Shown piece by piece: positions 40,728-61,684 of a stretch of DNA of 64,000 nt. The position numbers and the translations under genes were made by a program. Each line of letters opens with the position of its first letter. Position 1 is the first letter of the stretch. This stretch comes from Eubacteriales bacterium (GTDB lineage: Bacteria > Bacillota > Clostridia > Oscillospirales > CAG-272), in contig JAZNZB010000033.1 in NCBI GenBank assembly GCA_045594705.1, forward strand, positions 317 through 64,316, given 5' to 3'. A model generated the notes under the pieces. That model worked only from the letters and a program-made list of their open reading frames with translations. It had not been told where the DNA came from and did no database searches.

Positions 40728-40738
40728 AAGTATTATAG

Positions 40739-40767
40739 CCCCGCGGACTTGTCCGCGGGGCTTTTTT
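40739..40767 (+). terminator. intrinsic terminator of alaS (also the first module of repeat copy B)
   Basis: CCCCGCGGacttgtCCGCGGGG followed by CTTTTTT. Confidence 0.85.
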
Positions 40768-40803
40768 CACGTCTTGCACACCCACCACACGGACACGCAC
40801 AAT

Positions 40804-41144
40804 AGGATGAAAGTTTCGCTCGAGCCTTTTCAAAGGCTCGCGGGATCCAAGGGCAGAGCCCTTGGTGGCGCCCGCAGGCGCGAAACATTCTCGGCGTTTC
40901 TTTTTTGTGAACTTTTTTCTTTGCGCCCGCGGTGTCAAAGAAAAAAGTGGGTGAAGGGTTAGTATGTGTTACATTAAGAGGATCCTCTCCGTTCTTTTTG
41001 AGCAAGGAGCTGCAAAGAAAAACATATTTGCTGCGCAAATTAAACAGCGTTTAGGATTATTTCGCGCCTGCAGGCGCGACTTGGGGCGCTGCCCCAAGCC
41101 CCCGCGACCTTTTTGAAAAAAGGTCGATCAAAAACTTTCATCCT
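40804..41144. mobile_element. MITE-like repeat, copy B (about 341 bp) with terminal inverted repeats of about 85 bp
   Basis: The left end is AGGATGAAAGTTT... . The right arm (41050-41144) is the reverse complement of copy A's left arm: GCGACCTTTTTGAAAAAAGGTCGATCAAAAACTTTCATCCT. Confidence 0.6.
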
Positions 41145-41214
41145 GTGGAGGTGATCCGTTGGGGGGCGGTAAGTGAAACTTTTATCTTGTCTTGGCTCTT
41201 CCTCAACAAAACAA

Positions 41215-41248
41215 GGGCTGTCGCTTTCGCGACAGCCCCATTTTTTTG
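41215..41248 (-). terminator. bidirectional intrinsic terminator closing the seven-gene operon
   Basis: GGGCTGTCGCtttcGCGACAGCCC has T-rich runs on both sides (plus-strand CATTTTTTT; minus-strand TTGTTTTGTT). Confidence 0.7.
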
Positions 41249-41267
41249 TTTTTCTCTTCCCTGCAAA

Positions 41268-42377
41268 TTATTCTGCGGTCAGACCCGAACGCTCAATACC
41301 TTCAACACGGTATCTCTGTCCGAACAGATACAGAATGATCAGCGGTGCGATAATGCACAAGCCGCAGGTGTTACGAATTGCCGCGTAATACAGGCTCTGG
41401 CCCGCATAGTCGGTCTTGAGCGACTTGGGAATGTCAATGATGTCAGGCATCAGTACCGTCTTGGTGGTCGTGAAGAACAGCTCCGTATAGAAGTTGTCGG
41501 TCCACTGCCAGCAGAACGAGAACAGGAATACCGTGATCAGCATAGGTACGGACATGGGCAGAACGATCTGAATGAAGGTTCTGAAGTTGCCTGCACCGTC
41601 AATGTACGCAGATTCCTCCAAAGAGTCCGGAATGCCGCGGAAGAACTGTCTGAGCATGAAGATGTACAGACCGTTCTTGAACGCAAGGCCGGTTGCGGAC
41701 AGCACCAGGAGAGGTACGTATGTGTTGCACAGGTTCCAACCACTCGATGTCCAGAATTTCCAGGAGTTGGGGATGATATCGATCACACCCTCCAGGAAGG
41801 TGAAGCCAAAGATATTGAGGCTACCGCCGGACAGGAATCCGAAAATTCCGAGGAAATCGAAATAACGGAACTTCATGAACAGGGAGAGCTCCAGCGTCTG
41901 GTGAGGCACGATCATGGTCAGCATAACCAACAGGAAGATGATGCCATTACCCTTGAACTTATACTTGGCAAAGCCGTAGCCGATGGTGGCACAAATGAAG
42001 GTCTGGATCAGTGCGCAGCTACCGGAGAGCAGAAGCGTATTGCCAAATGCTTCCCAATAGTTGAGCTCGGTCAAAACGCCTTTGTAAATATCCAGCGACC
42101 AGTTCTTGGGGATCAGACGTACGGTTACGTCTACGAAATCCTCGGGAGCCATGAAGGAGCCGGCAATCTTGGTGAAGAACGGGAACAGAACTACGTAGGA
42201 AATACCTACGAGCAGTACCAGTCTGAACACAAACCAGACTACCTTAGTGAGGAAGAAGAAGCTGATGTACTTTTCCTTGAAACGCGTCTTAGCGTCGGTT
42301 CTTTCGAACTCAACCTTGATGCGTCTTTTGCTTTCTTTTAAGACCTTAGGCTTATCTTGCAAATTTTGTGCATTCAT
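41268..42377 (-). CDS. carbohydrate ABC transporter permease (MalG-like, pair 2) with a basic N-terminal extension and an enlarged extracytoplasmic loop
   Basis: 369-aa polytopic ORF with an EAA-loop region LEESAYIDGAGNFRTFIQIVLPM and an AAGGAGG RBS. Confidence 0.85.
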   Translation of the reverse strand: MNAQNLQDKPKVLKESKRRIKVEFERTDAKTRFKEKYISFFFLTKVVWFVFRLVLLVGISYVVLFPFFTKIAGSFMAPEDFVDVTVRLIPKNWSLDIYKGVLTELNYWEAFGNTLLLSGSCALIQTFICATIGYGFAKYKFKGNGIIFLLVMLTMIVPHQTLELSLFMKFRYFDFLGIFGFLSGGSLNIFGFTFLEGVIDIIPNSWKFWTSSGWNLCNTYVPLLVLSATGLAFKNGLYIFMLRQFFRGIPDSLEESAYIDGAGNFRTFIQIVLPMSVPMLITVFLFSFCWQWTDNFYTELFFTTTKTVLMPDIIDIPKSLKTDYAGQSLYYAAIRNTCGLCIIAPLIILYLFGQRYRVEGIERSGLTAE

Positions 42378-42392
42378 TCTTTCCTCACCTCC

Positions 42393-43376
42393 TTAATCTC
42401 TTCTTTGATAGAATACGTAAGACGAGAAGATCAGAGCTACCAGCGATACGATCGCAATAACGATCAGGAAGTACATCCAGGACATCGCACTCGCAACAAC
42501 GTCGCCGTCAGCTGCGGAGCTCTTGACACTCTTGATAAACGACATAACCGAGTTGGACTGCGTTGTGAACGCGTCAACGATGGTGTAAACGCCGTTTACA
42601 AGGATCATCGGGCTGATCATGGGGAACGTGATCTTCCAGAAGGTTTCCCATGCGGTTGCACCGTCTATACGGCACGCTTCATAGATTGCGGGAGAAATGG
42701 ACTGCAGCGCGGACAGGAAGATCAACATCTGTACGCCGGAGCGGTTTACGATATCGTAAATGTTGTTGATCCAGGTCAACGCCGTTTCCATAAGTCCCGT
42801 ACCGACCTTCATATTTGAGAACAGTCGCTCAATATCCACCGCTGTGACAATATTGTTTGCGGCACTTGAGCCGGAACCGTCGTCGATACCGCTTGCACTA
42901 TCCATGTAAGAGCCCAGAATGTTCTGTGCCTCAACGGTCTGCATAATACCGGTTGCAAGAATAACGGGGATAAAGAAGATTGCACGGAATGCTGCTCTAC
43001 CAACCATCTTCTGGTTGAGCAGAACTGCCATGAACAGCGAGAAAATGATAATTGCGGGAATGTCGAACGCCAATTCCTTCATACCCGACACAAGGACCTG
43101 TGCAAATTCGGGGTCTTCCAGAAGTGCATACGCATAGTTTTCAAATCCGACAGGGGTCAGCGAGTAACCGCCGCCCTGCAAGATATTGATCTTGAAAAAG
43201 CTGAGCTTTACAGAGTCGAAGATGACCGGCAGATAAATCAGGACAAAGCCGATCAGGAAAGGTAAAACGAAATACCAACCTACGCGTGACTTACGCTTAT
43301 CCAAGGAGGCGATTTTTCTCTTCTTGGGCGCAGACTTCTTAGACATGGTATTCTGAAGCTTTGCGTCATTTGTCAT
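42393..43376 (-). CDS. sugar ABC transporter permease (MalF-like, pair 2)
   Basis: 327-aa polytopic ORF with an EAA-loop IYEACRIDGATAWETFWKITFPM and a GGGAGG RBS. Confidence 0.85.
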   Translation of the reverse strand: MTNDAKLQNTMSKKSAPKKRKIASLDKRKSRVGWYFVLPFLIGFVLIYLPVIFDSVKLSFFKINILQGGGYSLTPVGFENYAYALLEDPEFAQVLVSGMKELAFDIPAIIIFSLFMAVLLNQKMVGRAAFRAIFFIPVILATGIMQTVEAQNILGSYMDSASGIDDGSGSSAANNIVTAVDIERLFSNMKVGTGLMETALTWINNIYDIVNRSGVQMLIFLSALQSISPAIYEACRIDGATAWETFWKITFPMISPMILVNGVYTIVDAFTTQSNSVMSFIKSVKSSAADGDVVASAMSWMYFLIVIAIVSLVALIFSSYVFYQRRD

Positions 43377-43394
43377 GTTCTACACCTCCCTTTC

Positions 43395-46300
43395 TTACTG
43401 CATCACAACAACGTAGCCGTATGCGGGAAGGGTATAAAGCAGACCCTCGTACTCAATGCTTACGGAGAAGTTGTTGTAGTTGAGAATAATGGACTTATAA
43501 GGATCGGCGTCAACACCGTTCTTGCCACCGTAGGTGACGACAACGATAGAGCCTTCCTCAACCGCATACTTGTCAAATTCCTCTTCCTCTTCCTCATCGG
43601 TTGTGCCGGAGGAGGAGCCGGGAGGAGTGACACGGTTTGCGATGTCCTCTTCGGTAATATAGTCCTTAACCAGCGCCTTAACAGCCTCGAAAGTGCTGTA
43701 TGCGTTGTCGGAGAATGTTGTAAAGGAATCCTGAGTGAAATCAAGATCAACCTTTGCGGGCATCTCGCTCAGAGTTTCCTCATAATCGGATACCTCGCAC
43801 AGCTTGGTAACTGCATAGTACTTAGCAAGGTTAACAAGATCTGTGTTGTACAGCTTGGAATAGTCATACTCGAAGTGGCACAGTGCACTGATCTCTGCCT
43901 TCTGATCGTCGGTCAGCTCGCAAGCCTTCAGAATTTCAGCGTAAGCAGCAGTAACTTCCTTGTTGTAGGTCTCGGTTGCCTTTGCGAAGGTGGACTCGAT
44001 CTTTTCGATCGCTGCCTCGCTCTCAGCGATAGCAATATCCTCTTCATAATCAGCCTTAGCCTTAGCAAACTTCTCTTCAGCTGCTGCAAGGTCCGCATTC
44101 AGAGTTTCAAGATTTGCTTCAATTGCTTCATTCACGATCTTCTGGATCAGAGCTTCAACAGCTGCTACGTCCTCGCTTACGGAGTAAGTAGCCTGGTCCT
44201 TCTTGTATCTGTCCTTGAGAATGGTAAAGTCTGCGCCATTGATAAACAGATCCGTGGTGTTTCTGTACTCTTCAGCCTCAGCAATCAGCTCGGGAAGCAT
44301 GCCCTCGGTCGCGCTGATGATCTCTACTGCCTTCTTGGCATTTTCAAGATGCTCGGAAACCTGGTTGAGCGCGGTCTTTGCCTTTGCGTAGTAGTTGTAA
44401 ATGTTTACGATGTCGTTCAGACGTCTGTTTCTGGTGGTGGTGTATCTGCTTCGTGCACTTCTGTAGTCCAGATACTCCTGATACTTATCGTATTCCTCGG
44501 TTCCCTCTTCTGCATCCGAATACTCTGCATATGCTTCGTAGTCGATGCCGGTTTCCAGATATACGTCGTATGCAGCCTTGTACTCAGCAAGAGCTTCACA
44601 GTCTGCTACGAAGGGTGCGTACATATCATTTGCCTGCTTGAATGCAGCTGCTGCATCGTCCAGAGCGGCCATAGCAGCTTCAGCTGCTTCTCTTGCCTGC
44701 TTTCTCGCAATGCTGACTGCCTGCTTATCCTTGAGTGCAAGTACTTCGCCTGCATTTTCTTCAGAATAGAAGTAATCGTTGAGTACTGCCTCAAGATCGG
44801 CCAGCAATTCATCGCTGTCGGGAACACGGGTACCGGTCCAGAATTCATGATCAATGATCAGCTTATCCTGAACGTCGCCCAGCACGCTGTTGAGCTCATC
44901 ATACATCTCGATCACGTCATCCTTCCAGATGTCGTAACGTACGGAGTAGTAATGGCTGAGCAGCTGGTAATCCTTGAGGTTCTGGGTATTGCGGTAGGAC
45001 AGGATGTAATAAGGAGATGCGCCGTTCTCAATTGCCTTGAGCATTGCATACTGGATATTACCTTCCATGTTCATGGGAGAACCGGTGAAGTTGATGTAAC
45101 CGTGCAGTACAACGCCCACGAAAGGAACTGCATGTGCTGCATCGTTGTTACGGCTGGAGTCAAGAGAAACGTCCAGCAGGTGGTCAAGGAACTTCCATGT
45201 GAATGCGTTGCCGCCTTCGCTCATCAGCTCGATCTCTTCGCCCTGGTTATTCTTCATGCCGGAGAGATACTCAAGCGCAGTGGCTACGAATTCCTTGGAG
45301 TCCTCGCGGTTGTAAGGATCATCCTCGTCAAAGTCGGAGTTCAGGGTGTTACCCAGAGTACCGACCGAGATACCGTTGATGTTATCGTACTTCAGATAGT
45401 TCTTTGCCAGCTTCTCATAGAACTTGTTGAAGCTTGCGGGAGAGATTGCCATCTGATAGTGGCTGACGTGCTTCTGCTCGGTTGCAGAATATTCACGGTA
45501 GCTTGCATAACGGTCGTCGATGGTTCTGACTGCGTGCCAACGCAGGGATACACCGTCAAATGCCTCGGAATAGTTGATGTAGGAGAAGTCGAAGTCCGGG
45601 AAAATACCGAAGTTGTTGCCCTCGGTCTTATTGACTTCGTTTGCGTAGTTGACAAGCTCCTGGAAGCCATCCTTACCGCCAACTGCCTTTTCCCACTTCA
45701 GCTTGGAGGGTACGATGGAATTCATACCGCCGTTTGCATAACCGGTGAGCTTGAAGTTGATGTTGGTAACGCCCTCGGCTGCCAACTCATCATACATGGT
45801 CTTGACATCCTCAAAGGTTGTCAGAGGAGTCATAACGTCCACAGGAATGGACATGATTCTTTCGGTGGTCTCAAGAGCACCGGAGGTCTCGATGTACAGA
45901 GGGATATCGTCCTCGACGTCCTCTGCGGTCAGTCTTGACAGGTAGTTGTTGCGATCCAGATAATCTCTGTATGCAAGTGCCATGCCCAGCCAAGAGGTCT
46001 CATAGTAGTCCTCTACGCCCTTTTCTGCAGCGAGATCACTGTCAGAAAGCATCACGTAACGGATCTTGTAGTTACCTACGTACTTTCTCTCACTGACGAC
46101 CGTCCAGGTAGCGTCCGAACCTACCGAAATGGAGTCCTGCAGGTTGTAGGAGTCGCTGGGTCTGGGGTTGAATACCATCTTGATGGTATTATAGTCACTG
46201 AGCGAACCCGCGTGATAGGTCATGATGTCGGTCAGCGCGTCGCCCTCTTCCATGATAGCAACGTAACCGCGGTCAACTTCTCTCTTGACGACCTCATTTG

Positions 46301-47660
46301 CACTGTTGCCAATGATAGAGCCGAATTGCTGTACCAGTGCAGGAATGGAGTCCTGTGCGCCGGAAGCAGTAGAGTTGAACTTGTTGACCTGATCCACGAT
46401 AGAACCGGAAAGGGTTGTCGTTTCCTTTACCTGCTCGCCGGTCTCAGCATCTTCTACGGTCTTGATGTAATCGTAGTAAACGGAGTTTTCAACAACGCCG
46501 AATACAGGATATCTGATCGCCTGCTGATAAGTACCGGTAATGGTGTGGTATGCATAGTCAGTACCGTAGACCTTACCTCTAACGGTTCTGGTCTTGGTAT
46601 CCTCTACGTCGTCAAACTCATACAGAGAGCCTGCGCCGTCGGGATAGAAGGTATAGCCGTCGTATGCACTGTTGCCCGCGCCCATGTAAGGCAGAACCTG
46701 AATGGACTCAAGCTGATAGAGAGATTCGTTGAAGCGGATACCGTTCGCGGGAAGTCTTACGGTCATGCCGTGCTCATCCAGCGTGTACTCCAGTGCCAGC
46801 TTGAACAACGGAGGGTTCTTATCCTGGCTTTCGTACTCGGTTTCTGCATGGTCAGCATCCAGTTCCTCGTAGGTGTACTCGGGGCAGTAGGTCTTGATGT
46901 AGCCCTCGATCTTATTCTTCTCGGTCTCGGATGCGTTCTGGTCGAATACGTAAACGTCCATCTTTTCTACGATGGGGAACGCATCGATCAGCTCGGCACG
47001 GCCTCTTTCGGACAGACCCTCAAGAGAGAGCTTGAGGTAGTAAGCAGTCAGCTTGCTGTAGTCGAACTCGGAAATGCCGTTTTCAAGTGCCTTAGCACAG
47101 ATCACTTCTTCAAAACGCTCAACACTGATCATACCGGGAACAAGCTTTCTTGCCTGTTCTCTACCCAGCGTGTACTGCACGCGGATACCGTTCTTGATGC
47201 GCTTGACAATGATCTGATCCTTCAGAGCTGCCATTTCGTAGCTCACGAAGACAGGGGACGTATTGTTATCGGTATACTGAATGATGATCTGCGAGAGCAG
47301 CTCATTCTTGGTGTTGGTAGAGCCCAACGTGGAAGTACCGATATCATAGGGGTTGGTGAACAGGATCTCTTCGGTCTTGATGTTTCTGTATGCAACCTCA
47401 CCTGTAAAGGTATCAACGTACAGCTCGTAGTTGCCCTTGGTCAGGTAAAGCTCCATAGTTTTAAGCTTTTCCTGGGGATTTGTGAACACCAGAGTGGTGT
47501 AATCGATGGTCTCTTCCTCTTCTTCCTCTTTCTTGTCAGTGGTACCTGTTCCGGTATCCTCTTCAGCAGCGGATGCTCCGAAAACAGACAGCACTGTCAA
47601 GGAACCCAGCATCAACAGTACAGCTAAGAGTAAAGAGATAAATTTTGTTTGGATTTTCAT
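43395..47660 (-). CDS. 1421-aa secreted protein: DUF5696-like large globular region, an Ala/Glu/Lys/Tyr-rich coiled-coil region of about 370 aa, and a small beta-rich C-terminal domain
   Basis: The signal peptide is MKIQTKFISLLLAVLLMLGSLTVLSVFGASA/AEE, and a GGAGGGAAAGG RBS lies upstream. There are poly-Glu tracts near both ends. The family name comes from recollected sequence character and gene context, not from a search. Confidence 0.65.
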   Translation of the reverse strand: MKIQTKFISLLLAVLLMLGSLTVLSVFGASAAEEDTGTGTTDKKEEEEEETIDYTTLVFTNPQEKLKTMELYLTKGNYELYVDTFTGEVAYRNIKTEEILFTNPYDIGTSTLGSTNTKNELLSQIIIQYTDNNTSPVFVSYEMAALKDQIIVKRIKNGIRVQYTLGREQARKLVPGMISVERFEEVICAKALENGISEFDYSKLTAYYLKLSLEGLSERGRAELIDAFPIVEKMDVYVFDQNASETEKNKIEGYIKTYCPEYTYEELDADHAETEYESQDKNPPLFKLALEYTLDEHGMTVRLPANGIRFNESLYQLESIQVLPYMGAGNSAYDGYTFYPDGAGSLYEFDDVEDTKTRTVRGKVYGTDYAYHTITGTYQQAIRYPVFGVVENSVYYDYIKTVEDAETGEQVKETTTLSGSIVDQVNKFNSTASGAQDSIPALVQQFGSIIGNSANEVVKREVDRGYVAIMEEGDALTDIMTYHAGSLSDYNTIKMVFNPRPSDSYNLQDSISVGSDATWTVVSERKYVGNYKIRYVMLSDSDLAAEKGVEDYYETSWLGMALAYRDYLDRNNYLSRLTAEDVEDDIPLYIETSGALETTERIMSIPVDVMTPLTTFEDVKTMYDELAAEGVTNINFKLTGYANGGMNSIVPSKLKWEKAVGGKDGFQELVNYANEVNKTEGNNFGIFPDFDFSYINYSEAFDGVSLRWHAVRTIDDRYASYREYSATEQKHVSHYQMAISPASFNKFYEKLAKNYLKYDNINGISVGTLGNTLNSDFDEDDPYNREDSKEFVATALEYLSGMKNNQGEEIELMSEGGNAFTWKFLDHLLDVSLDSSRNNDAAHAVPFVGVVLHGYINFTGSPMNMEGNIQYAMLKAIENGASPYYILSYRNTQNLKDYQLLSHYYSVRYDIWKDDVIEMYDELNSVLGDVQDKLIIDHEFWTGTRVPDSDELLADLEAVLNDYFYSEENAGEVLALKDKQAVSIARKQAREAAEAAMAALDDAAAAFKQANDMYAPFVADCEALAEYKAAYDVYLETGIDYEAYAEYSDAEEGTEEYDKYQEYLDYRSARSRYTTTRNRRLNDIVNIYNYYAKAKTALNQVSEHLENAKKAVEIISATEGMLPELIAEAEEYRNTTDLFINGADFTILKDRYKKDQATYSVSEDVAAVEALIQKIVNEAIEANLETLNADLAAAEEKFAKAKADYEEDIAIAESEAAIEKIESTFAKATETYNKEVTAAYAEILKACELTDDQKAEISALCHFEYDYSKLYNTDLVNLAKYYAVTKLCEVSDYEETLSEMPAKVDLDFTQDSFTTFSDNAYSTFEAVKALVKDYITEEDIANRVTPPGSSSGTTDEEEEEEFDKYAVEEGSIVVVTYGGKNGVDADPYKSIILNYNNFSVSIEYEGLLYTLPAYGYVVVMQ

Positions 47661-47690
47661 ATAAATTACCTTTCCCTCCTATCTGTAGCG

Positions 47691-49844
47691 TTACATGCGG
47701 TACTGCAGCTCGGTAACGATGTTGGTACCCAAGGATACCAGCTTACCGACCAGCGTGGAGAACAGGATTGCGATGAACATGATAAATACCATGCCAAGCA
47801 CCGTTCCCAAAATCGTGATGGTATTCTTTACGATGGAGTAGTCGTGTGTGACCTGAGTGCCGAAGAAAATCAGCACGCCCATCCACAAAAAGGCAATGGT
47901 GGTCACCAGAGTAATCAGCTCAACCTCGGTCTGAATTGCGAAGTTGGAGTAAATGGTTGCGGGGATAACCAAAAGCGGGATAGGCATCATACTATAGGAG
48001 CATGCGATGTAGATATCCTTGAAGCTGCCTTCACCTTCAAACAGGGTGGTCAAGCACCAGTTTGCGGTGATGAACAGGAACAGAGGTACCAGCACCGAGA
48101 TTGCCTGGCCCCAGATGGTGGAATACGTGTTGTAGGGATTGAGCAGGTAGCCCTGACCGATCGACTGATAGAAGAAGGTCAGAATGACGATCAGGTTGAT
48201 GGTGAGTGCTCCGCGCAGCGAGCCGCGACGCTCGTGCTTGAGATCCCAGAAGCCATCAAACGGATGCAGCATGATATAGAATGCATACAGCAACTCTTCC
48301 CAATAGGTTCTTCTCTGGTCTGCCTTCTTGATTCTCTTGTTGACCTTGGTGATGTACTTGGATACCAGCACCAGTACAATGATGGCAGCAAGAATGCCGA
48401 TCAGAAGGAACAGGAAATAGTCGGACATGAACTCCTTACGGATATCCTTATAGGAGGTGGACCAGTTCAGTGTATCGTAAGCTGCCTCGAAGTACTCCAG
48501 CGACTCCTCGAATTCACCGTTACGGTACATAGCCTGACCGATACCGATGTAAGCTGCGTCGAAGTTGGAGTTTCTCTTAAGCACGTCGGTCCACAGATTG
48601 ATCGCCTCGGTGTAATCCTGGCGGTTCTCTGCTGCAATTGCGTCCAGCAGTACGTCACCGTACTCGGTACGCTCAAAGACCGTGATGGTATCCTTATCCT
48701 TATCCAGGATCAGCATGGTGTCGCCCTGGTAGCAGATTGCTTCAATACTGGAAACGTTACCCAGCATGTTGCCTTCCTTATCACCAAACGCGAACAGAAG
48801 GTTACCGTCAAAGTCGTAGGTGTAGATCTTACTACGCTTTTCGTCGATGATGGACCAGGTCTGCTCAGGACCGCTTGCTACGTCGATCAGCGTGGAAACG
48901 CCGGTGGGAACGCCCTTGCTGGCGTCGGTGGATCTTGCACCGAAAATGTCAATTTCACCGGAAGGCGGATAGAAGCCGTTACGGCGCATGATCTCGTCAC
49001 CTGCCTGGTTGAGCAGCTTGACGGGTGCGTATTTACCGGTCTTATCCTTGGCTCTAATGGTATTCATAACCGAGCCTTCATCGATGGTAGAGGTGGTTAC
49101 GTAAATGAAGTCACCGTTGAGCGCGATGTTGTTGTACTCTGTAGCCACATAGGTTTCGGAGTTTTCTCTCTGCTCTTCGGTCTGGAAGCGTCTCCAGATG
49201 ATATCCCATGCCGAAATGGTTACAGCCTGAGCACCGATAAAGCCGGTGAACTCACCGCTGCTGGTCATCACGATGATACCCTGATAGGTAGTCGAGGATA
49301 CCACGTACAGCTTTTCGTACTTGTCTACTGCGATTGCAACCGGCTTATATACCGAGTTGTCATCAAACAGCGGGCTTTCGGGCTCTTCGATTACGCGGTC
49401 GAAGTTACCCTTTCTGTCGAACACCACGATACGGTTTGCACCGGTATCGCATACCCAGATGTACTTGTCAGAAACGAACAGACCCTGGGGTGCACTCAGG
49501 CTGTCCATAACGCCCTGTCCGTTACGGAAGGTCGAAATGGTGAACTTGAGCTTGTAGTAACGGTCCAGCACGACGATACGGTTGTTTGCGGTATCCGCAA
49601 TATATACGTTCTGCTGGTCGTCACAGATCAGGTCTCCGGGGTTATCGATCGGAACATCCAATCCCATGTAGGTGGAGTCAACCACTTTTTCAGCGGTATA
49701 TGCATCAGGTGAATACAGTGCATAGCCGTCGATGGAGTATGTGTAGGTCTGATATGCGGAGCTTGCCGAAGCAGGAAGAACCAGGCAGGAAGCAATCATC
49801 ATCACGGAGAATACTACACATATAATAGTTGTAATCTTTTTCAC
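47691..49844 (-). CDS. fusion membrane protein: extracytoplasmic NHL-repeat beta-propeller + TPR-like segment + C-terminal YIP1-family polytopic domain (GTG start)
   Basis: 717 aa. NHL repeats include NVYIADTANNRIVVLD and YIWVCDTGANRIVVFD. A TPR-like segment is AYIGIGQAMYRNGEFEESLEYFEAAYD. Then come a TM helix and HPFDGFWDLKHERRGS plus about 5 TM helices. GGAGG lies 7 nt before the GTG. Confidence 0.7.
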   Translation of the reverse strand: MKKITTIICVVFSVMMIASCLVLPASASSAYQTYTYSIDGYALYSPDAYTAEKVVDSTYMGLDVPIDNPGDLICDDQQNVYIADTANNRIVVLDRYYKLKFTISTFRNGQGVMDSLSAPQGLFVSDKYIWVCDTGANRIVVFDRKGNFDRVIEEPESPLFDDNSVYKPVAIAVDKYEKLYVVSSTTYQGIIVMTSSGEFTGFIGAQAVTISAWDIIWRRFQTEEQRENSETYVATEYNNIALNGDFIYVTTSTIDEGSVMNTIRAKDKTGKYAPVKLLNQAGDEIMRRNGFYPPSGEIDIFGARSTDASKGVPTGVSTLIDVASGPEQTWSIIDEKRSKIYTYDFDGNLLFAFGDKEGNMLGNVSSIEAICYQGDTMLILDKDKDTITVFERTEYGDVLLDAIAAENRQDYTEAINLWTDVLKRNSNFDAAYIGIGQAMYRNGEFEESLEYFEAAYDTLNWSTSYKDIRKEFMSDYFLFLLIGILAAIIVLVLVSKYITKVNKRIKKADQRRTYWEELLYAFYIMLHPFDGFWDLKHERRGSLRGALTINLIVILTFFYQSIGQGYLLNPYNTYSTIWGQAISVLVPLFLFITANWCLTTLFEGEGSFKDIYIACSYSMMPIPLLVIPATIYSNFAIQTEVELITLVTTIAFLWMGVLIFFGTQVTHDYSIVKNTITILGTVLGMVFIMFIAILFSTLVGKLVSLGTNIVTELQYRM

Positions 49845-49861
49845 GATTCTTACCTCCTGTT

Positions 49862-50734
49862 TTAGTCTTTCATACCGGACGAACCCATGGTTTCAATGAT
49901 GTTGGACTGAGATACGACGAATACCGTGATCGGAACCATCATCATAATAACCGTGGATGCCGCAGCCGCACCTGCACGGGCGATACCGCCTGCAGTGATC
50001 TGGCCGATTGCGTAGTTAAAGGATTTGAGCTGCTCGGAGTGAATGTACATCGAAGCACCTGCGTTCCAGAGTCCCTGGAACGAATAGATGATCAGCGTCA
50101 GCCATGCAGGCTTAACCATAGGCATTGCGATGACCCAGTAGGTCTTGAGCTCGCTTGCACCGTCAAGTCTTGCAGACTCAAGCACCGAGTCGTTGACGTT
50201 GGTATCCATGAACTGCTTCATCAGGTACAGACCCAGAGAGGAGCACCATGCGGGCACGATGATTGCCCAATATGTATCCAGGAAGCCCAGAGCGGACATC
50301 AGGATAAACGAAGCGGTTGCGGTAACCGTTGCGTTGAACATCAGCGAGAGCTGTACGGCCTGGAACATCCAGCCTGCACCGGGGAACTTGATCTTTGCAA
50401 GCGCATATGCTGCAAGAGAGGCCAGGAACAGGTGTCCGAACGTACCCGCTACGGAAGTAAACACAGTGTTGAAAATGTAACGGGAGAACGGAACCCAGGA
50501 GGTGTTCATCAGGTTGAACAGATCGATGAAGTTATCAAGTGTGGGGGACATTACGTAAAATCTGGGGGGATACATCCAAAGCTCATCCAAGGGCTTTACC
50601 GACTGCATCAGCACGTAAAGCATGGGAAGGAACATGAATGCACCGAGAATCACGAGTACGAACGTGATACCTGCGTCGCCTCCCGCAGAACGGGCAAGTA
50701 CGACTTTATGTTTTCTTGTTCTAAGTCTTGCCAT
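49862..50734 (-). CDS. carbohydrate ABC transporter permease (MalG-like, pair 1)
   Basis: 290-aa ORF with 6 TM helices and an EAA-loop VLESARLDGASELKTYWVIAMPM. Confidence 0.9.
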   Translation of the reverse strand: MARLRTRKHKVVLARSAGGDAGITFVLVILGAFMFLPMLYVLMQSVKPLDELWMYPPRFYVMSPTLDNFIDLFNLMNTSWVPFSRYIFNTVFTSVAGTFGHLFLASLAAYALAKIKFPGAGWMFQAVQLSLMFNATVTATASFILMSALGFLDTYWAIIVPAWCSSLGLYLMKQFMDTNVNDSVLESARLDGASELKTYWVIAMPMVKPAWLTLIIYSFQGLWNAGASMYIHSEQLKSFNYAIGQITAGGIARAGAAAASTVIMMMVPITVFVVSQSNIIETMGSSGMKD

Positions 50735-50735
50735 A

Positions 50736-51683
50736 TTACGTACCTACCTTCGAAAGCATTCTCTTTACAAGTGAGTTTGCACCAACCATGATGACGAACA
50801 GGATGACTGCGATCGCAGAGGAATAACCCATCTCAAATCTCATACCGCCGTAGTCGTTCAAATGGTGCATGATGGTGTGTGCTGCGTAGTTAACAGAGGG
50901 GAATCCGCACAGTGCGTCAACGACGCCACCGAAGCCGAATGCACCGGTGATTGCCATGACCGCACCGAACATCAGCTGCGGCTTCATGTTCGGCAGCGTG
51001 ATGTAGTACAGCTCCTGCCAACGGTTCTTGATACCGTCAACCGCGCCTGCCTCAAACTGAGCTCTGTCGATACCCTGAAGACCTGCGATAAATGCAAGGA
51101 ACGAGGTACCGAGCGAGATCCAGAGTGCAACAACGATACACAAAGGCATTACCCAGTCTTCATTCTGGAAGAACGCGATTTCCTTGGTGATAATACCCAA
51201 CTTCTTGAGCGTTGCGTTTGCCCAACCGTAGGAGTCGGCCGAGAAAAGCGTACCCCAAATCAGGTAAACGTTACCACCGATGGAGGGTGCATAGAATACC
51301 AGAGTTACAAGTGCTCTGATTCTGGGAGGCAGCTCGTTGATGAACCAAGCTACCAGGAAGGACATCAGGTAGGAAACAGGTCCTACGATGATTGCGAAGA
51401 TCAACGTGTTCTTGCAGGCAATGAGGAAGATATCGTCATCGAAGAACAACGAAATGTAGTTGTCAAGGAATACGAAGTTCGGCCATTCCAGCAAGTTAAA
51501 GTCTGTAAAGCTGACGACGATGGAAAGTACAACAGGCATTACAGTGAACATTGCAAAGAGGATCATATAAGGTGCGACCATGAAGTACGCGACCTTATTA
51601 CGTACCATCTCTTTCAAGATCCACTGAGTCTTTGTAAGGTCTTTGCGAGTGCCAGCTTTTTTGGTTGCTGTTTTCTTAGACAT
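50736..51683 (-). CDS. sugar ABC transporter permease (MalF-like, pair 1)
   Basis: 315-aa ORF with an EAA-loop QFEAGAVDGIKNRWQELYYITLPN and a GGAG RBS. Confidence 0.9.
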   Translation of the reverse strand: MSKKTATKKAGTRKDLTKTQWILKEMVRNKVAYFMVAPYMILFAMFTVMPVVLSIVVSFTDFNLLEWPNFVFLDNYISLFFDDDIFLIACKNTLIFAIIVGPVSYLMSFLVAWFINELPPRIRALVTLVFYAPSIGGNVYLIWGTLFSADSYGWANATLKKLGIITKEIAFFQNEDWVMPLCIVVALWISLGTSFLAFIAGLQGIDRAQFEAGAVDGIKNRWQELYYITLPNMKPQLMFGAVMAITGAFGFGGVVDALCGFPSVNYAAHTIMHHLNDYGGMRFEMGYSSAIAVILFVIMVGANSLVKRMLSKVGT

Positions 51684-51725
51684 TTACTCTAATCTCCTTT
51701 TCTGATCTTTTTTGATGGTACTTAT

Positions 51726-54700
51726 TTATTGATAGGATTCCATAGCGGCGGAAGCGTCGCCAAGGAAATCAGCCAGGCAGTATGCAACGAGCTCGGGAGT
51801 CTCTGCGTACTGGTATACCTGGTAAGAGTAGCAAGGATTGGTGGGATTGGTCTTGATCTCCTCGAACTGCTCAAGAATTGCAGCCTCGGTGCTGATCTCG
51901 TACGCCACCTTCAGGAATGCAGCGGAAGCATTTGCAAGGTCTGCGATGTTTTCACGCTTGATCGCATCTCTTGCGGAAGCGATTTCATCTGCGTACTTGC
52001 CGGTGGTGTCCAGCTGTTCGAACTGTTCAAGCAGCTGCTCGCTCTGCTCCAGACGCTTGGAGGCCAGAGTCTCGTCTACCTCAAGAGTTTCCAGACCGAA
52101 TTCCTTACGCTTTCTGGTGATCTCTTTATTAATGGTAGTAATGTAACTCATCAGAGACTCGGAGGGGTTCGCGTTGTCGTTATAAGCAGACAGGAATGCG
52201 AACTGGGTGTAACGGCCGAGAATGTAAGAGCCGGGATAGTTGGGAACCGATGCAAGGTCCTCAAACTGTGCCTGGATCTGCTTGAGCTCAGCGGTGGTCC
52301 AGGGCAGCTCCTCAAGAGCTTCTCTGTTCGCAGTATTGTACTTTGCTGCGGGACCGATGATCGCTACCATCTCGTTGGAGTATTCCTGCTGGCAATCCGC
52401 GCCGGTGAACCATCTGATAAAGTTCCAAGCACCGATCTCATCGCTGCAGCCCTTGACGATAACGCTGGCAGCAACAGAAGATACGGTCTGTCTGTTGATG
52501 TAGGTGGTACCGTCCTCATTGGTGCGGATCGTACCGGGCATCGGATAGAACTTCCAAAGTCCCTCGATTTCGGTTGCGAATACCTTGAGCTGGTTGTACA
52601 TACCGACGTAATCCGCAATCAGAATGGGCATTTCACCGGTTCTGAAACGGTTAGCTGCGTCGTACTGATAGGGGAAGTTATACTGTGTAAACATGTTACA
52701 CATCTTCTCAAAGGAGGTCAGACCCTTCTTGGAGTCCAGGTTGATTCTCATACCGCCGTCGGCATACAGGTCACCGCCTGCCTGATACAGGTAAACGCTG
52801 TAGTCGGTGGAAAGACCGATCATCATGTTGTTTGCCTGCAGGTCGGGAATTGCCGCCAGGATATCATCCCAGGTCTCGGGAACAGGAATGTTCAGCTCAG
52901 CCAGGATGTCCTCACGAACGAACATCATGGCAAAGCCCTGTGCCTCGGGAAGTGCGTAATAGTGCATATCACCGTCGGGGTTCTCTACGCCAAGCACCAG
53001 CATTGCCGCATCGTTGAAGTGGCTGATGGTGTCTTCCCACTCGGTGTTTGTGCTCAGGTAACCGTCCTTGACCTTCTGCTCACCGACTCTGTCTGCAATC
53101 TCGTCAACGGGAAGCAGCGCAGAACGGATCGCGTAGTTGATGACGTCGCCCTGGCCAAGGCCGAGGTAAACGTCAGGACCTTCACCTGCAAGGATGGAAG
53201 GAAGCAGCGTACCTGCTGCGACCAGCTTAAGGTCTACTGCAGCACCGCCGATGTATTCGCCCTTGGAATTGGTGGTTTCGTTGGGAGAGAAGTCGTTGTT
53301 GATCAGGTTTCTGATAACCTGAGACTGGTCACGGCCGGTAGCCAGCCAAACCTCAACGGCATCCTCGTCCGTCACGACGGACATGGAGCCCATGCTGTTA
53401 TAGTCACGGAAGAAGGACATGACAAAGCTCTTGATCTCGTGCCATGCAGCCTGGAAGATGTTTGCGTTTGCCTTTACCTTATAGTTATAATCGGAAGAAT
53501 CTGCGCCGAACTGCTCGCTGCCGCGGATGACCATGTAGTCAACCTCAAGAGGCTGCGTCTTTGCGCTGGACAGGAACGTACCCAGCGTACCGATGTAAGC
53601 CTTGAGCTGCTCCAGGTTCTTTGCGATCTCATCCTCGTCGGTACCCATATCGTGCAGCAGCTGTGCTACCTTCTGCAGAGTACCTACGTTGGAGGACTTC
53701 TGTCCTGCCATGTTGGTCAGTCTTTCCGCAATGGATACACCGTACTTCTCGGGGTTGTCGTTGTCAAGTCTGCGGGACTGAACGACCATGTCAACCAGAA
53801 CGTCAGGCATGACGCGGGAGAAGCTGTAATCGCTATATTCGTCGGGGGTGGTACCGGTCAGCTTGATGATCTCAAGATAGTCATCGTTGATGATGTCCAG
53901 GATCTCTTCAACCTCACGGACGATATCGCCCATGGTACCGAGCGTAACCTCAAGACGCAACGTATAGGTGGTATTGCCTGCCAGATAGATTGCGTATTCC
54001 TTGATCTCGCCATTCTCATCGAGTCGGTCGGAAGCAAGGCCGGTGGTCTGCCAGTTCGTATCGTAATTGTACTGAAGTCTTTCAGCCTCAGCAAAGGGTG
54101 CACCGTTATAGTAGCCGGCGTCGCCTGCTTCAAGGCCCTGGCTGTACAGCTGCAGCGAACGGCAAACAAACATACCGTCCAGTACGTTCTGTCTGAAGCG
54201 GGTCACGATATCGTACATACCTGCACCGTCCGCAGAGGTGGTGAAGGTGAATTCGATCCACTGACCTGCAGTCTGCCACTTTGCGCCGCCAACGGTGTTG
54301 AGCATCACGCGGGTGGTGTCTGCGGGAGAGGTCACTGCACTGGTTCTGTCCTCGATCGCGTAGATGGTCTTGGAGGACATGTTATTCATGTGCTCAGCCT
54401 CAAGCTTGATTTCATCCGAGCCTGCGCCCAGAGTACCCAGCTGGCTCTTCAGCGCTGCCAGATAATCCTCGTAGGTCACAACCTCGGTTGCGGGGTACAG
54501 CGTGATCGACTTGATGACCATAGGCTCGTTCTGGCCCTGAATGGTCAGCTTGTTCTCGCCTGCCTCGAGGTAGAACTCGTACTCACCGGCATAATAACCG
54601 GAGGAGTCACGCAGGCTGTAGGTGATCCACTCGGGAGACTGGATCGCGGTGGGACGCAGTTCGTTCTCTTCAACGTCTTCCTTGAAGAAGCGAATGCCCT

Positions 54701-55484
54701 TCTCGTCCACGAACGCCGTGTTAGCCTCGGTCCAGATCTCGGGGAACTCAACGGTTGCATAAACGTTCAGCTCGGTATAGATCTTGCCGAAGAGATTCTT
54801 CTTGGTCTCTTCCTTAGCGGTCCAGCCTGCCTTCAGTCCTGCAGCCTCTGCCTCTGCCTTGAATGCATCCAATGCACTGCGGACGTCCGAAGGCAGATCG
54901 CTCTCGGTCAGTTCGCTTGCCTTCTTGGAAGCATCCTTGAGTGTCTCGATCAGATACAGGCCGGGCAGATACTCGCTGGTCCAGGTCTTGGACAGCGTCA
55001 GGTAACGTGCTTCGCCGAAAGGTACCTTGTCATTGATTTTGAACACACGCTCGATGGACGCAGCCTTACCGATCACGGGATAGTACTCGATCTTGATCGC
55101 GTACTTTGCGCTCTCGGGCACGTTCACGGTCCAGGAGACCTCACTTTCGGACGAGGTAAACAGGCCTTCGGCTACGCCGTCCTTTTCCTTGTCCGCAAGT
55201 CTTACGTCCTCTTCGCCGTCAACGGTGATGTAGCCGTTGGTCGCATCAATCGTAATGGTCTGCGTTGCCTTGGGATAGGCAGCGCCCGAATACTTTGCAC
55301 TGTATTCGCCATACGAAATTGCGTTAAGAAGCTCTTTGATTTCAGCCAGAGTATCATTCGTTTCCTCAGATCCGACCGTGTCCTGATTCTCTTCCGCAGC
55401 AAAGGTTGCTACGGTTCCGCCACCAACCAGGAAGGTCAAAGCCAAAATCAAAGCCATAAGCTTAGTAAATTTCGCTTTTCCCAT
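51726..55484 (-). CDS. giant (1252-aa) extracellular solute-binding protein: two CBM6/35-like modules + family-1 SBP domain + helical tail, with no lipobox
   Basis: ORF 51726-55502. The ATG at 55484 (GGAGG RBS) is preferred. The signal peptide ends ...VATFA/AEEN without a Cys. SBP-like blocks are VEVWLATG and LPSILAGEGPDVYLGLG. Confidence 0.75.
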   Translation of the reverse strand: MGKAKFTKLMALILALTFLVGGGTVATFAAEENQDTVGSEETNDTLAEIKELLNAISYGEYSAKYSGAAYPKATQTITIDATNGYITVDGEEDVRLADKEKDGVAEGLFTSSESEVSWTVNVPESAKYAIKIEYYPVIGKAASIERVFKINDKVPFGEARYLTLSKTWTSEYLPGLYLIETLKDASKKASELTESDLPSDVRSALDAFKAEAEAAGLKAGWTAKEETKKNLFGKIYTELNVYATVEFPEIWTEANTAFVDEKGIRFFKEDVEENELRPTAIQSPEWITYSLRDSSGYYAGEYEFYLEAGENKLTIQGQNEPMVIKSITLYPATEVVTYEDYLAALKSQLGTLGAGSDEIKLEAEHMNNMSSKTIYAIEDRTSAVTSPADTTRVMLNTVGGAKWQTAGQWIEFTFTTSADGAGMYDIVTRFRQNVLDGMFVCRSLQLYSQGLEAGDAGYYNGAPFAEAERLQYNYDTNWQTTGLASDRLDENGEIKEYAIYLAGNTTYTLRLEVTLGTMGDIVREVEEILDIINDDYLEIIKLTGTTPDEYSDYSFSRVMPDVLVDMVVQSRRLDNDNPEKYGVSIAERLTNMAGQKSSNVGTLQKVAQLLHDMGTDEDEIAKNLEQLKAYIGTLGTFLSSAKTQPLEVDYMVIRGSEQFGADSSDYNYKVKANANIFQAAWHEIKSFVMSFFRDYNSMGSMSVVTDEDAVEVWLATGRDQSQVIRNLINNDFSPNETTNSKGEYIGGAAVDLKLVAAGTLLPSILAGEGPDVYLGLGQGDVINYAIRSALLPVDEIADRVGEQKVKDGYLSTNTEWEDTISHFNDAAMLVLGVENPDGDMHYYALPEAQGFAMMFVREDILAELNIPVPETWDDILAAIPDLQANNMMIGLSTDYSVYLYQAGGDLYADGGMRINLDSKKGLTSFEKMCNMFTQYNFPYQYDAANRFRTGEMPILIADYVGMYNQLKVFATEIEGLWKFYPMPGTIRTNEDGTTYINRQTVSSVAASVIVKGCSDEIGAWNFIRWFTGADCQQEYSNEMVAIIGPAAKYNTANREALEELPWTTAELKQIQAQFEDLASVPNYPGSYILGRYTQFAFLSAYNDNANPSESLMSYITTINKEITRKRKEFGLETLEVDETLASKRLEQSEQLLEQFEQLDTTGKYADEIASARDAIKRENIADLANASAAFLKVAYEISTEAAILEQFEEIKTNPTNPCYSYQVYQYAETPELVAYCLADFLGDASAAMESYQ

Positions 55485-55933
55485 AAAATTTCCTCCTACC
55501 AAGATTTTCTGTGAGTTGCCGATATGAGAATTCGGCTCACATTAGGGATACGGTGCTTGCCAATAATACCATGCACTGCGGGCAGAATCCGCACTCGCGG
55601 GACTCCGCTTGCGCGGAAATTGCCTTGCTGCTCCAAGCGTCTGCGTGACGTGGCGTATCACGCGCGCGCATGGAAACCGACCAAGCATCCGTTTCGGAGT
55701 GACCAATTTACACTCCCGACTTATCCGCAGGGAGCGATACGCGCAGCTGCGTACCGTGGAACCCTTGCAAACAGCCCGTGGCATCAGCATTATTGCTATG
55801 CAATTGTCTTCGGCGGTCTGACCCGCCGTTTTAGATTTTCACGCCGACAATTCTTTCATCAAATATATCGGCGGTCAAAAATAAGGCCATTGCAAGCAAC
55901 CCGGAACGGTCCGCAAAATGCCCTAATATTGAT
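55485..55933 (-). promoter_or_regulatory. long 5' leader (about 450 nt) of the seven-gene operon with a GC-rich, highly structured core (55510-55852)
   Basis: It lies between the consensus promoter and the SBP RBS. Multiple stable hairpins are visible, for example GTGAGccgaattctcatatcggcaaCTCAC at 55511-55540, GGAGTGtaaattggtCACTCC, and AATTGTC[...CGGCGGgtcagaCCGCCG..]GACAATT at 55802-55852. No known riboswitch motif was recognised. Confidence 0.4.
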
Positions 55934-55939
55934 GGATTT

Positions 55940-55968
55940 ATTATATAACAAAGGCGAATTTCTGTCAA
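55940..55968 (-). promoter_or_regulatory. exact consensus promoter TTGACA-N17-TATAAT for the seven-gene operon
   Basis: The minus strand reads TTGACAgaaattcgcctttgttaTATAAT. Confidence 0.6.
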
Positions 55969-56447
55969 GCATCAAACACCGCACCGACACGCCACGCAAA
56001 CATAATTATTATATAAAAACGCGGTTCACGATTTGTTCACACATTCATATTTTCGCTTTTTTCAAACATTCTGTATTTTCTGCATAACCTTGCATTTCAG
56101 CAATTGTAATTTTTGTTTACTCAATTTTCACCAATATTCGCCTATCCTTGCGTATTTGGCGTCCTTTTTTGTGCAAATTTATATTGAATTTTTGTCGCAT
56201 GATTGCAATGCGTAATTTTTATTTACCCTTTTGCGAAACGTGATTATTCATTTTTTATGCAGTTTTTAATTTTTTATTTTGTAACTCTTGCACAATTTTC
56301 GTGCTTGATTTTTTACGTCTTGACATTTTGCACAAATTTGCCGCCTTCAGCCTCACCGCCACTCCTTTTACCCCCTTTTTCGCCCCTATTTCCCCTTATT
56401 ATTATCATCTGTGCCATTTTTTTCCATTTATTTTTCGTTGCGTGTTT

Positions 56448-56463
56448 TTTTGCAATTGCAAAA
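56448..56463. promoter_or_regulatory. perfect 16-bp palindrome TTTTGCAATTGCAAAA (operator-like)
   Basis: Read directly from the sequence. It lies about 60 nt upstream of the rlmI -35 element, inside the 1.08-kb divergent intergenic region. Confidence 0.35.
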
Positions 56464-56470
56464 GGAGGAA

Positions 56471-56519: not shown

Positions 56520-56524
56520 CCCTC

Positions 56525-61683: not shown

Positions 61684-61684
61684 A

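Follow-up and report, generated by a model that had tools for sequence, protein, structure and literature searches.

The operon described here occupies the minus strand of the window, that is, of the whole 64-kb stretch of DNA analysed. It comprises seven genes encoding a giant solute-binding protein (SBP), a first permease pair (P1 and P2), an NHL-TPR-Yip1 membrane protein (YIP), a DUF5696 protein and a second permease pair (P3 and P4), in this order (Table 1). The open reading frames lie where an earlier note on this DNA had placed them, and the spacers between them (42, 1, 17, 30, 18 and 15 nt, in order) keep to its maximum of 42 nt; its mention of two directly abutting frames has to be corrected, since P1 and P2 alone nearly abut. 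The SBP frame is readable from a TTG at 55502, and the ATG start preferred in the note is backed by a GGAGG sequence about 8 nt upstream of it.

Table 1. Coordinates of the features of the operon and its leader.
Feature	Position	Strand	Basis or description
Seven ORFs, SBP-P1-P2-YIP-DUF-P3-P4	41268-55484	-	between promoter and terminator
Sigma-70-type promoter TTGACA-N17-TATAAT	55940..55968	-	12/12 consensus match
Structured non-coding 5' leader, ~450 nt	55485..55939	-	folding and conservation
Conserved block A (TTAGGGCATTTTGC)	55913..55926	-	just downstream of -10
Long-range helix, 5' strand (CAAUAAUGC)	55787..55795	-	within conserved block B, pairs with 55561-55569
Long-range helix, 3' strand (GUAUUAUUG)	55561..55569	-	within conserved block C, ~85 nt before start codon
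Giant extracellular SBP, 1252 aa	51726..55484	-	SBP_bac_8 4e-14
Permease P1, 315 aa, MalF/UgpA type	50736..51683	-	UgpA-like 6e-16 (NCBIfam), BPD_transp_1
Permease P2, 290 aa, MalG/UgpE type	49862..50734	-	UgpE-like 8e-16, BPD_transp_1 1.5e-9
NHL-TPR-Yip1 membrane protein, 717 aa	47691..49844	-	Yip1 4.7e-13, TPR, NHL/SGL
DUF5696 protein, 1421 aa	43395..47660	-	PF18952 1e-129
Permease P3, 327 aa, MalF/UgpA type, long external loop	42393..43376	-	BPD_transp_1 1.5e-10
Permease P4, 369 aa, MalG/GlcU type, insertions	41268..42377	-	GlcU-like 3e-18, MalG-like 3e-17
Intrinsic terminator (both strands)	41214..41239	-	11-bp stem, GAAA loop, T-run

The exact promoter announced in the note was found, and it is the single full consensus match in 17.5 kb, while promoter-like sites in total (18, versus 15.6 +/- 3.8 in shuffles) are not above chance. 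Of 71 related loci, 31 also have a strong promoter-like match ahead of the SBP gene, consisting of TTGACA and an extended -10 that often reads TGTGGTATGAT; its distance to the start codon is ~220-570 nt in most of them and far shorter in a few. At the other end, the strong terminator expected there closes the unit with a stem in which 8 of the 11 pairs are G-C; its plus strand also reads as a terminator, and alaS (38091-40727, plus strand) converges on it from the opposite side. No internal terminator or promoter above chance strength was detected within the operon, and no regulator gene is linked in cis, as the note had stated. With one strong promoter, one terminator and tight spacing, the seven genes probably form a single transcription unit.

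The leader folds at -176.5 kcal/mol (z = -4.1 versus shuffles). Its identity reaches 84-91% in close relatives, and conserved blocks remain in distant ones. An 82-aa frame inside it (55542-55790) lacks a ribosome-binding site, and indels of 1-2 nt disrupt it in relatives. The two strands of a 9-bp long-range helix lie in blocks B and C. All 153 cells are paired across 17 sequences, with frequent G-U and U-G pairs and with compensatory changes at two pairs (C-G to U-A in four sequences, A-U to C-G in two); none of 500 shuffles reached the observed values. Moreover, for 28 of 39 C-like blocks a 9-mer complementary at every position occurs 100-420 nt upstream (chance rate, by our own rough estimate, ~0.05 per locus). 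As in riboswitches and other long structured leaders, the RNA is much more stably folded than its shuffles, and its covarying closing helix overlaps, through the 5' strand, a conserved local hairpin, so that the two may be alternative structures. It differs from riboswitches in matching no Rfam family, in showing no identified ligand, terminator or anti-SD element, and in its interior, which is poorly conserved between clades. Block A, present in the clade of the window and in loci L001, L025, L029, L051, L056 and L063, yields no convincing consensus hairpin and may function as an operator in the DNA or as an element of the RNA. Block A sits directly after the -10, B repeats the motif of C in inverted orientation, and B also includes a short palindrome, all of which might suggest that the blocks act at the DNA level, as operators bound by an unlinked repressor, and not as RNA structure. 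We regard this as doubtful, since complete pairing with frequent wobble pairs is not a constraint expected on an inverted repeat in DNA, the promoter is 150-380 nt upstream of the blocks, and the leader as a whole folds far below shuffles.

Profile searches of the seven proteins returned the domain content described in the note. The SBP is composed of a signal peptide, CBM35-like beta-sandwiches, a helical linker, a CUT1-type SBP domain and a C-terminal helical bundle. Its only Foldseek matches are oligosaccharide SBPs (~450 columns); the AF2 model (pLDDT 65.6) is confident in the N- and C-terminal parts and poor in the SBP domain. The description of this protein as CBM-bearing stands by way of its homologues, of which 17 of 40 match CBM_35 and 29 of 40 Golvesin_C, and of the beta-sandwiches visible in the model; the sequence of the window itself gives no CBM match at E<=0.05. 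For the signal peptides and the lack of a lipobox Cys, the check was visual. The YIP protein consists of a signal peptide, an extracellular NHL beta-propeller, TPR repeats, one TM helix and a multi-TM Yip1 domain, with hydropathy peaks at residues 7-25, 477-495 and four to five more within 576-694. Its sequence matches in the PDB are PknD-derived propellers and TPR proteins.

The linkage of these genes is conserved. In 86 of 86 related loci the order is consistent with SBP-P1-P2-YIP-DUF-P3-P4 (71 are complete and the remaining 15 are cut by contig ends), and it holds down to ~43-50% DUF5696 identity, which bears out the view of the note that this is one coherent unit. A one-genome-per-species collection contains 418 loci; those listed all belong to uncultured Clostridia, whose sources are the gut of animals or humans and digesters. 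The flanking genes vary: alaS and rlmI in the window, and scpAB/PBP5, nifU/iscS/carAB or spoVT elsewhere. Such a cassette, found with unchanged order in every relative examined and among housekeeping genes that differ per locus, with a near-consensus promoter, no linked regulator and very strongly conserved P1 and P2 (77 and 82% median identity across the 86 loci), could have a housekeeping function, turning over a glycopolymer of the cell's own envelope: the enzyme would trim or recycle a glycan of the wall, capsule or S-layer, and the transporters would recover the fragments. This is unlikely: CBM35-like modules, like an SBP of the oligosaccharide type, are characteristic of foraging, the long structured leader suggests conditional expression, and neither wall-binding motifs (SLH, LysM) nor sortase motifs were noted in the Pfam scans.

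The DUF5696 protein is predicted to be composed of a signal peptide, an N-terminal beta domain, a GH129/GH101-like (beta/alpha)8 barrel, a helical insertion of ~380 aa and a conserved C-terminal beta domain. Its best Foldseek matches are GH129 (E 2e-13; 5opq, 5wzn) and GH101 (5e-9; 6sh9, 5a59) over ~930 aligned columns, followed by GH13, GH31 and GH66; the model is moderate (pLDDT 68, TM 0.33/0.43) and its catalytic residues are not mappable by alignment. An independent profile search gave a weak match to the GH129 enzyme NagBb (E 0.01, 67 residues only), and Pfam contains no glycoside hydrolase family matching the sequence, even at E<=10. Among the 397 proteins compared, D776 is conserved in 97%, R785, N818 and H853 in 100% and E878 in 99.7%, all at predicted barrel strand ends. 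The insertion (residues ~950-1330; 41-51% A/E/K/L/Q, 0-4% Pro plus Gly) is missing from homologues of ~1000 aa. Because of the predicted fold, the weak NagBb match and the conserved barrel residues, the operon probably encodes a glycosidase, contrary to the note, which had recognised none. It is also unlikely that this protein, though resembling a glycosidase, lacks catalytic activity and has a binding or structural role, so that the system would be a receptor or adhesion complex at the surface that feeds an importer, or a sensor, with no cleavage. In favor of this reading, E815, at the expected acid/base position, is acidic in 82% of homologues and S or N in 17%, glycoside hydrolase membership is lacking at the sequence level, and the long helical stalk and the PknD-like sensor propeller of YIP resemble surface-display or sensing architectures. 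Nonetheless, strongly conserved polar residues at strand ends are a typical active-site pattern, which inactive homologues usually lose. The literature search returned no paper mentioning DUF5696 or PF18952, in agreement with the earlier proposal of an undescribed system.

All four permeases have EAA loops (by eye) and the BPD_transp_1 domain, which in P1 scores 25.6 bits, slightly below the Pfam cut-off. The pairs share little identity (P3 versus P1, 24%; P4 versus P2, 23%), therefore both must be old and both have been retained. P3 and P4 (67 and 63% median identity) evolve faster than P1 and P2. The presence of a single SBP for two such divergent pairs, evolving at different rates, would fit two adjacent independent transporters (SBP-P1-P2, and YIP-DUF5696-P3-P4 with another, unlinked SBP), a very improbable arrangement given that the halves are never apart or reordered in the 71 complete loci and are joined by the short spacers and uninterrupted unit described above. 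No ATPase is encoded in cis, as the note had said, the LSGGQ signature being absent throughout the 64-kb window; CUT1 systems of Firmicutes are known to share an MsmX/MsmK-type ATPase.

Altogether, we favor, with a probability of roughly 0.55, the view that the operon equips Gram-positive-type gut Clostridia with a self-contained system that captures a glycan outside the cell, probably one with alpha linkages, cuts it and imports it. The SBP would hold the polymer via its CBM35-like modules, and the secreted DUF5696 protein, as a distant GH129/GH101-type glycosidase with D776 as likely nucleophile and E815 or E878 as acid/base, would release oligosaccharides. The CUT1-type domain of the SBP would hand these products to P1P2 and P3P4, two translocators of anciently diverged MalF/MalG type that an unlinked MsmX/MsmK-type ATPase would energise. 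YIP, by analogy with YknW, may act as a scaffold or assembly factor keeping the SBP, which has no lipid anchor, and the enzyme at the membrane, and the leader RNA would control expression in cis in place of a linked regulator. We infer the protein-protein contacts, the surface retention and the ATPase partner.

The closest known systems each share some of these traits. CUT1 importers with an unlinked ATPase, such as MalEFG/MsmX of B. subtilis and RafEFG/MsmK of S. pneumoniae, resemble the present system in the SBP fold (cluster D, oligosaccharide type), in the EAA loops of their MalF/MalG-type permeases and in having no ATPase in the operon. In contrast to them, the SBP described here is about three times as large as usual and carries CBM35-like modules, a linker and a tail that are both helical, and no lipobox; it stands alone for two permease pairs, and two large non-transporter proteins are embedded between these. 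The alpha-glycosidases of GH129/GH101 (NagBb, ZgGH129, EngBF, SpGH101) share with the predicted fold of DUF5696 the N-terminal beta-sandwich, the barrel and the C-terminal beta domain, whereas the long helical insertion between the last two sets DUF5696 apart. The Gram-positive polysaccharide utilisation loci (gpPULs) of gut Firmicutes, reportedly defined in Roseburia and Eubacterium by Sheridan et al. in 2016, likewise co-encode a degradative enzyme and an ABC transporter. They are usually variable, whereas the present cassette is invariant across hundreds of species, has a structured leader RNA instead of a transcriptional regulator gene, and encodes a candidate enzyme outside CAZy. In the bifidobacterial pathway of EngBF and the GNB/LNB transporter GltA, an extracellular enzyme is also functionally coupled to an ABC importer (PMC8106489); here the candidate enzyme is encoded inside the transporter operon. 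Finally, a passage of PMC4887032 citing Yamada 2012 indicates that the Yip1-family protein YknW of B. subtilis modulates the assembly of the ABC transporter YknXYZ, so the statement that bacterial YIP1 proteins have no experimentally defined role is not supported. Both operons encode a Yip1-domain membrane protein with an ABC transporter, but YknXYZ, which includes a membrane-fusion protein, is an exporter of the MacB type while the partner here is a type I importer, and YIP adds a ~450-aa extracellular NHL propeller and TPR.

The seven minus-strand genes form a cassette that we read, with a rough probability of 0.55, as a system for the capture, cleavage and import of an extracellular, probably alpha-linked glycan. 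In such a system, the DUF5696 protein would be the glycan-cleaving enzyme, the giant solute-binding protein (SBP) would hold the polymer as its receptor, and the two permease pairs (P1/P2 and P3/P4) would form two translocators served by a shared ATPase supplied in trans. For the Yip1-domain membrane protein (YIP), the precedent of the Yip1-family protein YknW (PMC4887032) suggests a possible role in scaffolding or assembly, and the leader RNA would regulate the operon. The same cassette might instead recycle a glycan of the cell's own envelope, a reading that we consider unlikely.

All seven ORFs listed in the earlier note were recovered at their positions (see the table below). The SBP gene starts most plausibly at ATG 55484, with GGAGG upstream, and the intergenic spacers measure, in gene order, 42, 1, 17, 30, 18 and 15 nt; two pairs had been described as directly abutting, whereas near-abutting is seen for P1/P2 only. 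The exact promoter proposed for the unit was confirmed (TTGACA-N17-TATAAT, 12/12, the sole such match in 17.5 kb), as was the closing terminator, which in prediction functions on the plus strand too. Within the operon, no internal promoter or terminator rises above chance. Since alaS and the operon have separate terminators, the 41-kb junction carries two. The long plus-strand antisense ORFs are treated as non-coding mirrors of the operon genes, on the sole ground that domains and homologues support the minus-strand proteins.

Features of the operon and of other genes and signals in the window
Feature	Coordinates	Strand	Remark
FMN riboswitch (RF00050)	16385-16549	-	full length, 81.6 bits
ORF, 1295 aa	21065-24952	+	crude ORF call; convergent with the next
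ORF, 1316 aa	24970-28920	-	crude ORF call
alaS			converges on the operon from one side
Small ORFs	40733-41038		unannotated; between alaS and operon terminators
alaS terminator	40737-40762	+	strong; 11-bp stem, 9 G-C pairs; ~450 nt before operon terminator
Operon terminator	41239-41214	-	11-bp G+C-rich stem and T-run
P4 permease	41268-42377	-	
P3 permease	42393-43376	-	
DUF5696 protein	43395-47660	-	1421 aa
Antisense ORF	43875-45938	+	very long, stop-free; mirrors operon gene
Antisense ORF	46212-47627	+	very long, stop-free; mirrors operon gene
Antisense ORF	47649-49712	+	very long, stop-free; mirrors operon gene
YIP	47691-49844	-	717 aa
P2 permease	49862-50734	-	
P1 permease	50736-51683	-	
SBP	51726-55484	-	1252 aa
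Antisense ORF	51729-55514	+	very long, stop-free; 1261 aa, opposite SBP gene
Leader	55485-55939	-	
Leader ORF	55542-55790		82 aa; rejected
Leader block C	55561-55569	-	
Leader block B	55787-55795	-	
Leader hairpin	55811-55828	+	G+C-rich, then TTTT; terminator-like on this strand
Leader block A	55913-55926	-	
Promoter	55968-55940	-	
RlmI-like methyltransferase gene			diverges from the operon on the other side
ROK-family gene	57939-58898	-	319 aa; in run upstream of methyltransferase gene
Further genes of this run	58993-59766, 60976-61734, 62344-63972	-	
ORFs in this run	59767-60951, 61685-62413		no Pfam match

The conserved unit is the cassette and not its neighbourhood. Close homologues of the DUF5696 protein number >1700, almost all of them without a name and encoded by uncultured Clostridia. 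A locus scan with one genome per GTDB species gave 418 loci, 80 of which were fetched; these are metagenome-assembled genomes (MAGs) of sheep, goat, yak, deer, horse and human gut and of digesters, Clostridium sp. CAG:448 included. In tblastn searches with the seven window proteins, the order SBP-P1-P2-YIP-DUF-P3-P4 was kept on one strand in 86/86 loci, which bears out the linkage that the earlier note had put up for checking; 71 cassettes are complete and the remainder are cut by contig ends, while the flanking genes vary. Relative to the window proteins, the median identity is 50% for SBP, 53% for DUF5696, 63% for P4, 64% for YIP, 67% for P3, 77% for P1 and 82% for P2. Because the cassette is fixed across so broad a group of uncultured Clostridia, with members in ruminant, human and digester communities, the substrate probably has a central place in the lifestyle of these abundant, unstudied bacteria. 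At one related locus (L053, a single MAG), P4 was matched as two separate pieces at 15161-16399, for which a frameshift, a misassembly or a pseudogene might account.

The enzymatic reading depends on the DUF5696 protein. Its domain (PF18952, E 1e-129, 433.9 bits against a cut-off of 25.6) is its only Pfam match, and a single-sequence search of the PDB gave none. Among 27 members, no Pfam GH family matched at E<=10, so that the protein cannot be assigned by sequence to GH129 or GH101. A profile of diverse members reached the GH129 alpha-N-acetylgalactosaminidase NagBb (E 0.01-0.06) over 67 residues in the beta2-alpha2 region of the barrel, and a barrel-only profile returned the same stretch from the PDB and nothing further. 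Modelled with AlphaFold2 at moderate confidence (pLDDT 68, pTM 0.55; TM 0.33/0.43), residues 30-960 adopt the three-domain architecture of GH129 and GH101, including their (beta/alpha)8 catalytic barrel. In Foldseek, the model comes closest to ZgGH129 and NagBb (E 2e-13 to 1e-10), followed by the GH101 enzymes EngBF and SpGH101 (3e-10 to 7e-8) and then by GH13, GH31 and GH66; the probability is 1.0 for the GH129 and GH101 chains. All these families are (beta/alpha)8 alpha-glycosidases flanked by beta-sandwich domains. The GH101 and GH129 barrels resemble one another and that of GH13 (PMC8106489). The earlier statement that the operon holds no recognisable glycosidase is thus correct as far as routine annotation goes, whereas the fold speaks against it, and DUF5696 appears as a candidate new CAZy family tied to the GH129/GH101 fold.

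Among 397 members, E591 (97%), N633 (98%), D776 (97%), R785 (100%), N818 (100%), H853 (100%) and E878 (99.7%) are highly conserved, and the position of E815 holds D/E in 82% of them and S/N in 17%. D776 follows the predicted beta4, and E815 lies 39 residues further on, after beta5. In GH129 and GH101, an Asp nucleophile and a Glu acid/base stand ~31-43 residues apart on the barrel (NagBb, SpGH101, ZgGH129), a spacing to which we take that of D776 and E815 to correspond. These two residues may therefore be the nucleophile and the acid/base, although searches gave no residue-level alignment to a solved enzyme. Alternatively, DUF5696 could be a non-catalytic part of the receptor complex, which seems to us quite improbable. 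Residues ~950-1330 are rich in Ala, Glu and Lys and almost without Pro and Gly; they form an insertion that separates the barrel from a conserved C-terminal beta domain and ranges in homologues from absent to ~900 aa, and the gene order is the same in relatives with a ~1000-aa protein lacking it. No publication mentioning DUF5696/PF18952 was found, nor anything on this system; the fold link offers a testable enzymatic hypothesis for a family of very considerable size (4106 clusters at 50% identity, E<=1e-3).

The domain calls made earlier for SBP, the permeases, YIP and DUF5696 were borne out by Pfam and NCBIfam. The SBP carries SBP_bac_8 (PF13416, 4e-14) in its C-terminal half and so has the receptor fold of a CUT1 importer (SBP_bac_1/8, cluster D). 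A single-sequence PDB search gave no match; by Foldseek, oligosaccharide SBPs were the only matches (E 1e-7, ~450 columns), among them a sophoro-oligosaccharide SBP, UgpB, GacH, RafE, GltA and MalE. The model of residues 55-1252 (AlphaFold2, pLDDT 65.6) places beta-sandwiches, a helical domain, the poorly modelled SBP domain and a C-terminal helical bundle in this order, the confident parts being the beta-sandwich modules in the first ~460 residues and the C-terminal bundle. The description of this protein as CBM-bearing is supported at the level of the family, as homologues match Golvesin_C (29/40) and CBM_35 (17/40; best E near 1e-6), but the window copy itself has no CBM match.

P1 to P4 all carry BPD_transp_1, P1 and P3 being UgpA/MalF-like and P2 and P4 UgpE/MalG/GlcU-like, and the EAA...G...P loop was read by eye in each; these are CUT1-type membrane subunits, present as two pairs instead of one. 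With 24% identity between P1 and P3 and 23% between P2 and P4, the pairs are old paralogues and not a recent duplication. That two transporters merely lie side by side is very unlikely. As the earlier note had claimed, the unit holds neither an ATPase nor a regulator: the cognate ABC ATPase of a CUT1 importer (MalK/MsmX type) is missing, with no LSGGQ in any frame of the whole 64-kb window, nor in the flanks of those related loci whose genes were listed.

YIP combines NHL/SGL, TPR and Yip1 domains (Yip1, PF04893, 4.7e-13, residues 523-692). Its N-terminal signal sequence precedes ~450 extracellular residues that hold the TPR and an NHL propeller of PknD type; next come a single TM helix and the multi-TM Yip1 domain, which, as with YknW, is encoded within an ABC-transporter operon. 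Across related loci the gene always lies between those of P2 and DUF5696.

In its working, the cassette would unite a CUT1 importer and a Gram-positive polysaccharide utilization locus (gpPUL). A gpPUL comprises a degradative enzyme, a transporter and a transcriptional regulator in one locus; the cassette has the enzyme (by fold) and the transporter but no regulator gene in or next to the unit, and therefore falls outside this definition. It is set apart from known systems by its invariant seven-gene build, double permease set, propeller-TPR-Yip1 protein and leader RNA. Mechanistic questions on ABC importers in bacteria without an outer membrane arise from its giant SBP, which has no lipid anchor, from its two ancient permease pairs and from a Yip1 protein with a sensor-type propeller. 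A bolder and rather doubtful proposal sees in the cassette a multi-component surface apparatus of a new class. Here the propeller-TPR-Yip1 scaffold would physically link two distinct ABC translocators with the CBM-bearing giant SBP and with a secreted enzyme (DUF5696, founder of a new glycoside-hydrolase family distantly related to GH129/GH101), and a novel riboswitch-like leader RNA sensing the substrate or a derived metabolite would switch the operon.

The ~450-nt leader (folding z = -4.1) is a candidate for a new cis-regulatory RNA; it precedes an operon for carbohydrate uptake, and we know of no riboswitch class in such a position. A strong promoter-like match precedes the SBP gene in 31/71 related loci, often with an extended -10 (TGTGGTATGAT), in most of the 31 at ~220-570 nt from the start codon and in a few much closer. 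Three sequence blocks (A, B and C) recur among loci whose proteins are only ~50% identical. Blocks B and C form a long-range 9-bp helix: in 17 distinct sequences, standard base pairing holds in 153/153 cells, with compensatory double changes at two pairs and variation by way of G-U at four. None of 500 shuffles matched the observed pairing or covariation, slid controls lowered the paired fraction to 26-66%, and a looser search found a fully complementary partner for 28/39 C-like blocks. The blocks, especially A, might instead be DNA operators, a reading disfavoured because G-U pairs are tolerated in the helix.

The 5' strand of the B-C helix also belongs to a conserved local hairpin, so that alternative pairing is possible. 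In six loci of one clade (L037, L040, L041, L042, L047 and L080), a second conserved 9-mer, UGGUAAUAC, occurs after CCGCACCGU, ~180 nt upstream of the SBP start, and is fully complementary to block C too; two possible partners for one 3' strand are the pattern expected of a switch. For the B-C domain, RNAalifold recovers the local hairpin only, because the interior aligns poorly; for the 5' block its output was not convincing, and we therefore abandoned a stabilising 5' hairpin that visual inspection had suggested. Neither an intrinsic terminator nor an anti-SD element could be recognised in the leader, and the hairpin at 55811-55828 is plain in the minus-strand transcript, with no U-run. The leader ORF was discarded, as it has no RBS and relatives carry frame-breaking indels. 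Metagenome scans with the block B pattern gave mostly chance matches in environmental contigs, only L148 and L176 looking genuine. Rfam 15 has no match to the leader and nothing credible at E<=1 in 55400-56600.

The ROK gene was put aside as a candidate regulator of the operon: its product has no Pfam DNA-binding domain, and the divergent methyltransferase gene lies in between. Besides this ROK-family protein, the run encodes a GH127-like beta-L-arabinofuranosidase, a histidine phosphatase and an alpha/beta hydrolase. The sole Rfam gathering-level match in the window is the unrelated FMN riboswitch.
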